Part shown: positions 54,407 through 59,511 of the stretch, one piece after another | How positions within the stretch are numbered: the first letter of the stretch is position 1 | Layout: each line of letters begins with the position of its first letter | Assembly (NCBI GenBank): GCA_039715015.1 | Contig: JBDLIE010000003.1 | Location: forward strand, 32,001 to 96,000 | Length of the DNA: 64,000 nucleotides | Origin: Thermodesulfobacteriota bacterium | Lineage (GTDB): Bacteria > Desulfobacterota > Desulfobulbia > Desulfobulbales > SURF-16 | Reading direction: 5' to 3' | Made by a program: the position numbers and the translations under genes | The notes under the pieces: generated by a model | Seen by the model: the letters and a program-made list of their open reading frames with translations, nothing else | The model's database searches: none | What the model was told of the DNA's origin: nothing

Positions 54407-55852
54407 CTAAACAGAAAGCGATGCATCAAAAGAGCCTACAAGGTCTTTGTAATCGGCCAAGCGGGGATCAACAACTTCAGTAAGGTACTCTTCAGTTTGC
54501 TCAGGGGCACGACCAACAAACTCACTACCATCACCAACCATAGCATCAAGGTCATCTGCTGTGAATGGTATCCGGTCATCTGCACCAAGACGAGCAAGAA
54601 GGTCATTTTCTACACCATCATTTTTAACTGCAAGTCCGGCCTCTACAGAGTGAACCTTAACGACCTCGTGCATTTCCTGACGACTTTCACCTTTTTCCAC
54701 ACACTCCATAAGAATCTTTTCAGTGGCCATAAAGGGAAGCTCCTGGCGCAAATGGCGTTGAATCTGTTGAGGGTAAACAACCATATCAGATGTAATGTTT
54801 AGAAAAAGTTTCATGATTGCATCTGTCAGCAAAAAGGCCTGGGGAATGTCCATGCGGCGGATTGCTGAATCATCCAGGGTACGTTCAAACCATTGATTGC
54901 TATAAGTTGCAGCAAAATCAGCAGGAAGCCCCATAAGCTTCCGGGCCAGTCCTGTCATGCGTTCAGAGCGCATAGGGTTACGCTTATAGGCCATGGCTGA
55001 ACTGCCAACTTGATTTTTCGCAAAAGGTTCTTCTTGAACCTTAAGATTAGAAAGCAGACGCATATCAACAGCAAACTTATGGGCAGAGGCTCCGATGCCT
55101 GCCAAAGTTTCTGAAGTTTTCATATCAAGCTTTCGGGTATAAGTTTGACCACTAACGGCAAAAAGATCGGAAAAACCAAGCTTTAAGGCAACAAGCTCAT
55201 CAAGCTTGCGAACTTTTTCATGGTCACCCTTATAGAGCTCTATAAAAGTTGCCTGGGTACCAACTGTTCCTTTAGCGCCACGAGCCTTGACTTGAACCTC
55301 AAGATGCTCAATATAGTCGAGATCCATCATAAGATCCTGAATATAAAGAGTATTTCTCTTGCCAACAGTGGTGGGCTGGGCAGGTTGATAATGGGTGTAA
55401 CCTAAGGTTGCAAGATCTTTGTGCTTGCGACAAAAACGGGAGAGATTGGCAATAACATTAAGAAGCGCCGCCTTAACGAGCTTAAGGGCGTCGCGCTGCA
55501 GGATAAGATCGGTATTACAGCCGACAAACTGACTGGTAGCGCCTAAATGAATGATGGGCTCAGCAGTAGGGCATTGTTGACCATAGGCATAAACATGTGC
55601 CATAACATCGTGACGAATCTCTTTTTCCTTGGCCTGAGCAATATCAAAGTTAATGTTATCCTTGAAGTTTTTAAGCTCCTCAATCATTTTTTCAGTGACA
55701 ATATCAGTGAGACCCATTTCACGCTCAGCCTCAGCCAAGGCAATCCAACAACGCCTCCAATTCTGAAATTTGTTTTCTTCAGAGAAAATCCACTGCATCT
55801 CAGGACTAGTATAACGACTAACCAGGGGCTCCTGGTAAACTTCACGATTCAT
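54407..55852 (-). CDS. purB: Adenylosuccinate lyase
   Basis: RHDVMAH, IHLGATS, YTHYQPAQ and the SSAMAYKRNP signature. Confidence 0.95.
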   Translation of the reverse strand: MNREVYQEPLVSRYTSPEMQWIFSEENKFQNWRRCWIALAEAEREMGLTDIVTEKMIEELKNFKDNINFDIAQAKEKEIRHDVMAHVYAYGQQCPTAEPIIHLGATSQFVGCNTDLILQRDALKLVKAALLNVIANLSRFCRKHKDLATLGYTHYQPAQPTTVGKRNTLYIQDLMMDLDYIEHLEVQVKARGAKGTVGTQATFIELYKGDHEKVRKLDELVALKLGFSDLFAVSGQTYTRKLDMKTSETLAGIGASAHKFAVDMRLLSNLKVQEEPFAKNQVGSSAMAYKRNPMRSERMTGLARKLMGLPADFAATYSNQWFERTLDDSAIRRMDIPQAFLLTDAIMKLFLNITSDMVVYPQQIQRHLRQELPFMATEKILMECVEKGESRQEMHEVVKVHSVEAGLAVKNDGVENDLLARLGADDRIPFTADDLDAMVGDGSEFVGRAPEQTEEYLTEVVDPRLADYKDLVGSFDASLSV

Positions 55853-56518
55853 TTACAAATCTCCGGATTTACGTATTTATTCATACTTGTGACGTGAAAC
55901 ATTGTAATGTTTTCTGATAGCAATAAGCTGGTATATTTAACCCATTTCCCCATGTTTTTCATGGCATTATAGGCCAAATTAACAAAAATAGTCCATCTAG
56001 AGCTGGGAGCGAGGGCTGTCGCCTTCTTCAATACAGCTATTTTGACAATGTCGCATAATATATATTATGTATAATTAACTTAAAGCAAGTAATGTCAACA
56101 AGTTGCCGTGCTACAATATTAGGTGGAATAAATTGAGATACTGTGTGGAATAATCGTTCAGCCTGGCCTGCCCTAAAGCCAAGATTAAGTGAGTGAACTG
56201 CAGGGACCAAGAAAACCTTGACCATTCTCTCCGCTATCCTGCGCAAATAGAGTTTTATCTAAAGGATTGCCACTCGCTTATCTGGTGAACCGTGGAAAGC
56301 GGTATTGTTGTTAGCCGCTTAAAGCTGTTTGTGTTTTCCGGGCTAATCCCTTCTGGGACCAGGCCGACGAACAAGAGACCTGACTGTTTCCTGGGCAGAA
56401 ACTGCTCACTCAAGTGGTCATTTTCTGGCGAGTCGACTCGTCACAGCGCTTTTTTGTTGTTGGCCCAGACGATCTAGGATGTTGAAGCCGCACGGGGCAA
56501 CAGTCTTTTTATGGTTTT

Positions 56519-56534
56519 CGGTATAAATTTTGCT
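56519..56534 (+). promoter_or_regulatory. Candidate sigma-54 (-24/-12) promoter for the multiheme cytochrome
   Basis: CGGTATAAATTTTGCT gives GG-N10-GC with TTGC, about 65 bp upstream of ATG 56598. Confidence 0.5.
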
Positions 56535-56597
56535 AATAAATTTTTACTATGTGGCAAGATGTCACATTATTTCCTTTGTTTAATTGAAGGATTACTT

Positions 56598-57737
56598 ATG
56601 CATTTTGCTTCATTTTCACCTCATGCTTCAACTGACATTGACTACAAGTCTACGACTTCTTGCTTATTTTCATTCTCTCAATCGCTGTTTTATGCCTTAG
56701 TAGCAACTTCTCTGCTTGCCCTACTTCCCTCTTTAGCCTTTGCCCGCATGACAGGTCCTTGCGACAATTGCCACACTATGCACAACAGTCAAGATGGTCT
56801 TGCAATGGCCACGGTTGGTGGCGAAGACGGCTCTGTGAGCAATCTATTTCTCACTAAGGGCAGCTGTATAGGCTGTCATGCCATGGGCACGGCCAATAAA
56901 ATTGAGCTTCTCGGCACTACTCCTGTACCTCAGGTGCTTCATGTCGATGGTTCAGGTGATCTGGCTGGCGGAAATTTTGCCTATCTTCTCGGCAATAAAG
57001 GCAGTGGCGCCTCTGATGCCAAGGGGCATAATATTGTCGATTTCAACAATGAAGACGCAGACTTATATGGTGCACCAGGTGGCATTGTTCAATCTTTCCA
57101 CGACGATGGTTATAACGTAAATGATGGGAATTTGACCTGTTCAGGTACAAATGGTTGCCATGGTTATAGGTATGCCAGCACCCCTTTAACCTCTGGAGTG
57201 GCTACCCTTTCCGGCGCCCATCACAATAATGTTGAGGGTAAATGTGACCAGGCCACCAACCCAGCCAACAGCTACCGTTTTCTGACCGGCGTCAAAGGCT
57301 TTGAGAACCAAACGGATAAATGGCAGAATGTCAGCTCCTCAAGCCACAATGAATATTTTGGTCAGGCTACCCCTATTCAGCTTGGTTGCAGTGGTGGCGC
57401 CACTAGCTGCCACAACATAGGAGTCAGTCCTCCAGACAATACCATGAGCCAGTTTTGCGCCACCTGTCATGGTAACTTTCACACCCTGACGACTTCTACA
57501 TCCGATGGCATAGGCAGCACCTTCACCTCTCCGTTTATCCGCCATCCTACTGATGTAGCCCTGCCTGCATCAGTAACGCCTGGTTCTGATGTGGTCATGT
57601 GCCTCTCCTGCCATGCTGCCCACGCCACAGATTTTCCTGACATGCTCAGGTGGGACTATGATGCCATGAAGGCAAACGACGCTTCCTCACCGAGCAACTC
57701 CGGCTGTTTCGTCTGCCATACAACGAAAGATGATTGA
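56598..57737 (+). CDS. Secreted multiheme c-type cytochrome, OmcS/OmcT-like
   Basis: gaagga RBS; signal peptide ending AFA; five CxxCH plus CX5CH and CX6CH; motif order CHTMHNS, GGNF, KGHNIV, APGG, YRFL, MSQFCATCH, RHP, CLSCHAAHA, terminal CxxCH..KD parallels OmcS. Confidence 0.85.
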   Translation: MHFASFSPHASTDIDYKSTTSCLFSFSQSLFYALVATSLLALLPSLAFARMTGPCDNCHTMHNSQDGLAMATVGGEDGSVSNLFLTKGSCIGCHAMGTANKIELLGTTPVPQVLHVDGSGDLAGGNFAYLLGNKGSGASDAKGHNIVDFNNEDADLYGAPGGIVQSFHDDGYNVNDGNLTCSGTNGCHGYRYASTPLTSGVATLSGAHHNNVEGKCDQATNPANSYRFLTGVKGFENQTDKWQNVSSSSHNEYFGQATPIQLGCSGGATSCHNIGVSPPDNTMSQFCATCHGNFHTLTTSTSDGIGSTFTSPFIRHPTDVALPASVTPGSDVVMCLSCHAAHATDFPDMLRWDYDAMKANDASSPSNSGCFVCHTTKDD

Positions 57738-57741
57738 TTTT

Positions 57742-59511
57742 TTATCCGGATACATCCGAGATGCAGAGTTGAAGTTGCCTTTTGCCCCTAAATTCATTGC
57801 CGGCAAGCTGATACACACAATGCATATGGCAACCTGGTACAATTGATTCTGCTGTTTGCTTGCTCTTAGTGCGTGCCCTGAACCATATCGCCCTGAACTT
57901 ACTTGTGCCCATACATAAAATCAGTTGGAGATGGTCCTTGTCCTTACCGACAAATTTGGCAGAATCAACGCTAAATTCATTTGAGAAAACAGGGTGTTCA
58001 AAATGCTGTCCAAAAGGTGCAAGCTTATTAATTTCATCAACGGTAGCAAGATTTATATTTTCCAAGGCCAAGGCCCCATCTGTGTCTAGAAAAGCAAGGC
58101 CTTCATTGTCTATCTCCTCACGATCAATGGCCTTGAGAAAATTTTCTCTAAACAAATCAAGCCCTTGCTTGAAAATTTTAATTCCGGCAGCTCCCTTATG
58201 TCCACCAAAGGAAATGATGTTCTCCTGATTTGCCCTCTGCTCCATGTCTGCTGTTTGCGCTAGAATATTGAGGATATGCACTCCCCCGCCTGTTCGGCAT
58301 GACCCGGCTAGCACTTCACCATGAGGAGTATTTCCAAAAACAACTGCCGGAACACCATGTTTTTCAGCTAGCCTTGAGGCCAGAATCCCTAAAATTCCAG
58401 GATGAAAATCAGTATGATACGCTACGATTCCCTTACTGGTGTCTGTTTCCTCTAGCAGTCCATTGGCAATATCCCTAGACTTTGCCTCACTTTTCTTGCG
58501 CAAATCATTGACTTTGGTTAGTTTTTCGAAATATTGTTTTGCTAAATCACCACCTTCAGCTAGTAAAAAATCCAAGGCCAATTGCGGATCTGCCATTCTT
58601 CCAGCACCATTTATCCGGGGACTTACCTGGTACGCCAAGTCTTCTTCAGTCAATTTGCCTACGGGGGCACCACCAAACTGCATGGATCGCCAACAGTGTC
58701 TGGCAAATGTGTTGATCTCCTTGAGGCCATACCTGACCACCGCCCTATTGGTCGCACTGAGAAGAGAAACACTGTCAGCAATGGTAGACAAGGCAACATA
58801 ATCAAGCAGTGAGATAAGGGTTGGGGTCTGAGTCGGCAGGCTGCCATCTTCAACCAGACTGGTACGCACAGCGCTCATAACCAGCCAACATACCATGCAA
58901 CCTGATATTGCCTTGTCGGGATATAGACACTTTTCCTGTTGAGGGTCAACTAACGTATAGGCTGAACAAGGGAACTCATCTTCTGGAACAAGATGGTGGT
59001 CGGTGATAATTACATCAATACCGGCTTCCTTGAGCACGGCTATTCTTTTTTCATCAGAAACGCCGCAATCTGCTGTAATAACAAGGTCTATAGCGGGAGT
59101 GTTGGCTAAAATTCGCGAACAGAGTTGGTCTGTTAAACCGTAGCCATCCTGCAGCCTATCGCCAACAAAGCTGTTAATCTGGCCATTATTGCGCCCCAAA
59201 AAGCCGTTGAGGGCTTTTTTAGCTACAGCATGCGCCGTGAGACCATCAACGTCATAATCCGTCACCAGGCCAATATTCTCGCCTTTTTTGATGGCTCTAA
59301 CAATTCGTCCCACAGCCTTGTTACAGTTTTTGAGGAGGTGTGGCGCAGGAATTTCTCGTAGCTTAGGGTCAAAAAAGGGGGTGAGATCTGCCAGGGATGA
59401 AACATCTCTACGACAGAGAATGTCGGCCTGGAGATGACTTAAGCCCCCAGAGCGAGCAGCCTCATAAACAGATTTTGACCGTTGGCGTTCCCTAACAATT
59501 AACTTTTTCAA
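57742..59511 (-). CDS. recJ: Single-stranded DNA-specific exonuclease
   Basis: DYDVDG, DGYG, ITADCG, ITDHH, PRINGAGR and GGHKGAAG. Confidence 0.92.
   Translation of the reverse strand: MKKLIVRERQRSKSVYEAARSGGLSHLQADILCRRDVSSLADLTPFFDPKLREIPAPHLLKNCNKAVGRIVRAIKKGENIGLVTDYDVDGLTAHAVAKKALNGFLGRNNGQINSFVGDRLQDGYGLTDQLCSRILANTPAIDLVITADCGVSDEKRIAVLKEAGIDVIITDHHLVPEDEFPCSAYTLVDPQQEKCLYPDKAISGCMVCWLVMSAVRTSLVEDGSLPTQTPTLISLLDYVALSTIADSVSLLSATNRAVVRYGLKEINTFARHCWRSMQFGGAPVGKLTEEDLAYQVSPRINGAGRMADPQLALDFLLAEGGDLAKQYFEKLTKVNDLRKKSEAKSRDIANGLLEETDTSKGIVAYHTDFHPGILGILASRLAEKHGVPAVVFGNTPHGEVLAGSCRTGGGVHILNILAQTADMEQRANQENIISFGGHKGAAGIKIFKQGLDLFRENFLKAIDREEIDNEGLAFLDTDGALALENINLATVDEINKLAPFGQHFEHPVFSNEFSVDSAKFVGKDKDHLQLILCMGTSKFRAIWFRARTKSKQTAESIVPGCHMHCVYQLAGNEFRGKRQLQLCISDVSG

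Follow-up and report, generated by a model that had tools for sequence, protein, structure and literature searches.

The question raised by this locus is whether the solitary multiheme cytochrome gene that it carries encodes a working subunit of a cytochrome nanowire, and how that protein is related to OmcS (GSU2504), the wire-forming cytochrome of Geobacter sulfurreducens. The gene is located at 56598..57737 on the forward strand of the window (that is, the whole stretch of 64,000 nucleotides that was analysed), and it encodes a protein of 379 amino acids, hereafter P0001, from an allele with an internal in-frame deletion. The first-pass annotation had described it as OmcS-like on the basis of an ordered chain of motifs, and both the ORF and all of the motifs were found again, in the same order. 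A putative Shine-Dalgarno-like sequence (GAAGGA, 56586..56591, forward strand) lies 6 nt 5' of the ATG. Residues 1-49 (56598..56744) are predicted to form a Sec-type signal peptide with a likely cleavage between A49 and R50; this assignment agrees with the earlier one and was made by eye from the hydropathy (a hydrophobic stretch at about residues 28-49, ending in AFA|R) and from the AxA motif. The segment is modelled by AlphaFold2 as a helix at residues 26-41 and occupies the same position in the homologues. The public gene call for this locus (P0278, 319 aa, 56778-57737) starts at Met61, and thus misses both the signal peptide and heme 1.

The gene is flanked by a divergent purB (54407..55852, reverse strand; TIGR00928 above cut-off) and a convergent recJ (57742..59511, reverse strand; TIGR00644 above cut-off). 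Neither a porin nor a partner cytochrome is encoded within the listed 46-64 kb part of the window, as had been noted before, and no companion cluster of the osc type adjoins the gene. Its description as solitary is therefore accurate for the purB/recJ locus but not for the genome, which also encodes an OmcS cluster on contig C42 and a paralogue on contig C1. The scans of the locus for promoters (4 vs. 3.8) and for sigma-54-like motifs (6 vs. 5.5) gave results at chance level, and an Rfam search over 55700-57900 returned zero matches. Non-cytochrome companion genes are present at 28 of 79 relatives' loci, and purB or recJ at three of the 79. Since 19 of the 35 relatives' loci of at least 13 kb do not contain a companion gene, a stand-alone position is common in the family. 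In one genome of the same genus, two intact tandem copies are located between purB and recJ (L103:8291-10826).

The analysis of the P0001 sequence revealed five CxxCH motifs, and a number of three or more was reached by none of 20,000 composition shuffles. They correspond to heme 1 (C55xxC58H59, 56760..56774), heme 2 (C90xxC93H94, 56865..56879) and the OmcS sites of heme 4 (C287xxC290H291, 57456..57470), heme 5 (C335xxC338H339, 57600..57614) and heme 6 (C370xxC373H374, 57705..57719), all on the forward strand. The heme 3 motif is non-canonical (C181-X5-C187-H188, 57138..57161) and conserved in 115 of 115 close homologues; the site previously listed as LTC..CH is hence present, but with a CX5CH rather than a CxxCH spacing. 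A seventh motif (C264-X6-C271-H272, 57387..57413), not listed before, has no counterpart in OmcS. P0001 thus combines five CxxCH, one CX5CH and one extra CX6CH, where the canonical type has six CxxCH. The second histidine of CHTMH, whose conservation had been pointed out earlier, is His62 (56781..56783); in the profile alignment it matches OmcS His16, which we take to be the inter-subunit ligand of OmcS, and it is retained in 115/115 close homologues and in 120/120 rows of the wider family. According to the accessible part of PMC6584659, heme 5 of OmcS receives one axial ligand from the neighbouring subunit. A lone cysteine (Cys216, 57243-57245) with no obvious partner is shared with 39 of the 115 homologues.

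A search of the PDB with the single P0001 sequence did not retrieve OmcS, and the Pfam and NCBIfam searches matched generic CXXCH families, as did the Atlas, which returned CXXCH clusters without names. A database search disclosed 1,598 relatives of P0001 among 5,912 candidates (120 among the matches listed), and a profile was built from P0001 and 115 homologues (A1, 116 sequences). The profile search that had been suggested as a check yielded a significant alignment: OmcS (6EF8/6NEF) was the sole match of A1 in the PDB (E 3.2e-14), spanning hemes 1-5, and a profile-profile comparison with 119 canonical OmcS-type proteins gave a probability of 99.7%. OmcS was also the top match by fold, a likeness that for P0001 itself is tentative. 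The two proteins share the six heme sites in one order, the His16 equivalent, KGHN, APGG, RHP and CxxCHxxH, at an identity of about 20-25%. P0001 differs from OmcS in its heme 3 and seventh motifs, in the absence of a companion cluster at its locus and in the lack of OmcS His2, whose counterpart is missing in 114 of the 120 wider rows.

In order to place P0001 relative to the canonical proteins, a quick midpoint-rooted tree of 83 rows was constructed from 57 of 124 locus ORFs, of which 12 were picked deliberately and 45 at random, and from 26 added sequences, 6EF8 being absent. The 19 canonical-type rows fall on one side of a branch with a support of 100 and P0001 falls on the other; P0001 is therefore OmcS-like rather than OmcS. 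The identity proposed by the first-pass annotation stands as far as homology is concerned, and has to be restricted to a sister branch, one marked by the CX5CH spacing of heme 3 and by the additional CX6CH motif.

OmcS-like cytochromes of this kind are already in print: the available part of PMC12545173 describes a sister clade of OmcS in Desulfurivibrionaceae, represented by DA_402, DA_756 and DA_765 of Desulfurivibrio alkaliphilus. P0001 shares the sister position, and it has the six CX2-5CH motifs aligned to OmcS, with an optional seventh, by which that text delimits the clade; its own seventh motif, being a CX6CH, lies outside the CX2-5CH range. The host, the motif pattern and the fold score suggest that P0001 belongs to the same clade. 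The nearest syntenic named locus (L003) is labelled Desulfurivibrionaceae and would place the host in this family, and the source genome (G000) contains a dsrA above cut-off. As for solved filament structures in the branch, the PDB profile search matched OmcS and nothing else.

P0001 lacks a block of 27 residues that each of the 156 homologues compared possesses. The junction (57570..57575, forward strand) lies at a 3-nt microhomology, and the missing 81 nt, in frame, correspond to 27 codons, i.e., residues 313-339 of the orthologue P0005. The spacer between RHP and heme 5 is consequently 17 aa long in P0001, in comparison with 44-52 in 156/156 database homologues. Among 133 locus ORFs it measures 41-63 in 127 and 17 in P0001's own copy (five not measurable), and in canonical OmcS-type proteins it reaches 66-82 in 114 of 120 (six not measurable). 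The missing block has an aligned counterpart in canonical OmcS, where the segment is conserved. Of 120 columns with a conservation of at least 90%, P0001 has lost seven through the deletion, among them an invariant E, P and R; any other row lacks three at most. The frame and all conserved Cys and His survive, and outside the gap just one of the 120 conserved columns is substituted. Comparison with four orthologues gave a dN of 0.06-0.13 and a dS of 1.6-1.8, the latter near saturation (dN/dS about 0.04-0.07). Since the rest of the gene shows purifying selection, the lesion is likely to be recent. No account of this deletion was found in the literature covered, which excludes most subscription journals.

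The AlphaFold2 models point in the same direction. The mean pLDDT of P0001 is 69 and falls to 45 at the heme-5 block, vs. 82 overall and 82-90 at that block for the intact P0005; the heme-free models reach a Z score to 6EF8 of 7.6 (204 aligned residues) and 14.1 (253), respectively. Foldseek returned no match for P0001 vs. E 5e-4 for P0005, a result that does not imply a different fold. A gap alone lowers the AlphaFold confidence to some extent, and the drop seen in these models is no proof of misfolding.

The deletion was then sought in contigs of one DNA run (X1), possibly from the source sample; a second run (X2) contained next to none of the window stretch. No RNA run with the region was among those listed, which has no bearing on whether the gene is expressed. 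One X1 contig of 1458 nt (depth 45.6) is identical to 56143-57600 and carries the deletion junction, beyond which it extends 28-30 letters, short of the 31-letter rule. A second contig of 147 nt (depth 21.8) joins 56172 to 57571 through 87 letters that replace 56173..57570, so that codons 1-324 are missing along with the greater part of the upstream region; 30 of the 87 letters are similar to the end of the block absent from P0001 and are best read with one extra base. The flanks have depths of 70.1, 66.8 and 67.1, close to 45.6 + 21.8. We take these contigs to represent a single locus with two alleles, of which one has the in-frame deletion and the other, lacking codons 1-324, is near-null. 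No intact allele was seen among the X1 contigs, which drop rare variants. The parent of the in-frame deletion could be an intact gene or one that was already frameshifted. At the 3' end of recJ (57737-57814), the X1 sequence and the window disagree in four substitutions and in an additional T of X1. In addition, a 58-nt X1 contig (depth 20.3, near 21.8) branches off at 57742, just past the stop codon, and possibly marks an insertion; the sequence beyond this branch was not found in G000.

The search of the genome for paralogues, also proposed with the first description, revealed two further members of the superfamily. Contig C42 encodes a full-length OmcS (E 7.5e-123 to 6EF8) within an apparently intact cluster (L001:2177-16600) that comprises two NHL-type propellers and one YVTN-type propeller, a 749-aa protein without family matches, two lipoprotein-like ORFs, a PPIase, and cytochromes with 26 and 16 hemes. 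This cluster, which includes the canonical OmcS, resembles the osc (omcS companion) cluster GSU2500-GSU2493 as described in the accessible portions of PMC13194489 and PMC12977616, the likeness being one of gene types; osc in turn overlaps the oet cluster of PMC10553843. It is the C42 cluster, and not the P0001 locus, that is the best nanowire candidate in the genome. Two cytochrome c assembly genes are located on contigs C31 and C33. In the C1 paralogue (L002:10419-11518; G000 C1:123421-124565), a frameshift interrupts the reading frame a short way past heme 1; with the deletion in P0001, two of the three OmcS-superfamily genes found in this genome are therefore damaged. The idea that the canonical OmcS had been newly acquired and was replacing the P0001 gene was rejected, as matches to it occur in six of seven other genomes of the same genus, three of them at 71-85% identity.

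Taken together, these data favour, with a probability of roughly 0.6, the interpretation that P0001 is a member of an OmcS-like sister branch whose intact members are likely secreted head-to-tail wire cytochromes, and that the present allele is likely non-functional or impaired through the loss of the block by heme 5. Judged from its sequence, P0001 is a candidate nanowire subunit of a known kind, probably in recent decay. Intact members would be exported by the Sec pathway and receive their hemes in the periplasm, would probably be secreted in trans by the C42 companion machinery, and may stack by means of His62, which would ligate the iron of heme 5 in the adjoining subunit; such a wire could deliver electrons from Dsr-linked sulfur metabolism to Fe(III) oxide or to a partner cell. 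In the P0001 allele, the lost segment would normally pack around hemes 4-5, and its absence might cause poor folding or failed polymerisation; because the block lies directly before heme 5, folding or stacking is likely to fail. The canonical C42 OmcS might cover the need, leaving the P0001 gene likely dispensable. In some strains OmcS is itself dispensable for Fe(III) oxide reduction, according to the available text of PMC13194489.

The same data can be read in other ways. It is very improbable that the deletion arose as an error of assembly and that the organism's gene is intact: a short microhomology lies at the junction, tandem copies such as those of relatives can confuse assembly, the letters of the missing block do exist in X1, and the window and X1 differ at five places just downstream; nevertheless, a separately assembled contig carries the identical junction at a depth of 45.6, the block letters sit on a contig that is also devoid of most of the gene, and the depths together account for a single locus and leave nothing over for another common allele. 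A working shortened variant, which would still bind its hemes and polymerise and might even be favoured (because its surface is changed, for instance, or because the deletion restored the frame after an earlier frameshift), is unlikely. The frame and the conserved heme ligands are kept, this is the majority allele in X1 and the extra base in the block tail of the second allele would fit such a frameshift (from 30 of 87 letters); moreover, PMC12977616 argues that wires of the OmcS type readily accommodate indels in their loops as long as the hemes remain coordinated. Against this, a spacer below 41 occurs in no homologue, three invariant residues are gone, the model degrades at heme 5, and chance alone would keep the frame in a third of all deletions.

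A different objection concerns the branch as a whole, whose intact members might have the OmcS fold but form no wires, being periplasmic or surface-bound monomers or accessory subunits, with P0001 as a damaged copy. OmcS is the one homologue of G. sulfurreducens known to form a wire in the accessible sections of PMC12977616, and DA_756 and DA_765, two of the three D. alkaliphilus members, were predicted to be periplasmic; the locus is free of secretion genes, like many long loci of the relatives, and the OmcS His2 counterpart is mostly missing. The invariance of His62 speaks against this possibility, as do the companion genes at part of the relatives' loci and, as reported in PMC12545173, the AlphaFold filament model of DA_402 and its more than 100-fold induction on ferrihydrite. 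On balance, a wire-less branch seems rather improbable, and the impaired member of a wire-forming branch remains the preferred interpretation of P0001.

On this preferred interpretation, P0001 adds little as a nanowire discovery and is probably a poor representative of the OmcS-like cytochromes. Since motif checklists and heme counts pass the deleted allele as intact, the electron-transfer potential is easily over-called from genes such as this one. The naturally occurring deletion highlights a stretch adjacent to the inter-subunit heme, and the deleted allele and its intact orthologues form a ready test pair.

The seventh heme site also sets P0001 apart from OmcS in a way that can be tested, and it belongs to a branch for which databases contain more than 1,500 relatives and no structure has been solved. 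Of its residues, C264 is conserved in 112/115 close homologues, and C271 and H272 in 115/115. The family has seven proximal and ten further conserved histidines, and co-occurrence suggests His168 (57099..57101, forward strand) as the candidate distal ligand: among the 120 wider rows it is present in 66 of the 71 with the seventh motif vs. one of the 49 without it. As the motif arose once on the tree, these counts represent one independent pair and allow no valid statistical test. A seventh bis-His heme in the P0001 branch is possible, as judged from conservation. The available part of PMC12545173 describes the seventh site of DA_402 as having no paired His, whereas in the P0001 family His168 tracks that site; no account of His168 was found in the literature covered, most subscription journals lying outside it. 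By analogy only, a role might be sought in OmcZ, whose fold is unrelated and has no inter-subunit His, and in which a heme off the main chain can be exposed to the solvent (PMC9473688). It is tempting, though doubtful, to go further and to imagine intact members as seven-heme OmcS-type wires in which a His168-ligated CX6CH heme would serve as an OmcZ-like side exit, together with a natural marine population that would be purging a surface wire by two separate deletions, under phage pressure or because of its cost, while keeping the canonical OmcS.

Heme number also varies elsewhere in the family: three members are extended at the C-terminus and contain 9-13 heme motifs in total (L058:3261-5444, L059:331-1911 and L060:7950-10175). 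Another member (L051:367-1506) is located on a contig titled Candidatus Methanoperedens, an archaeon.
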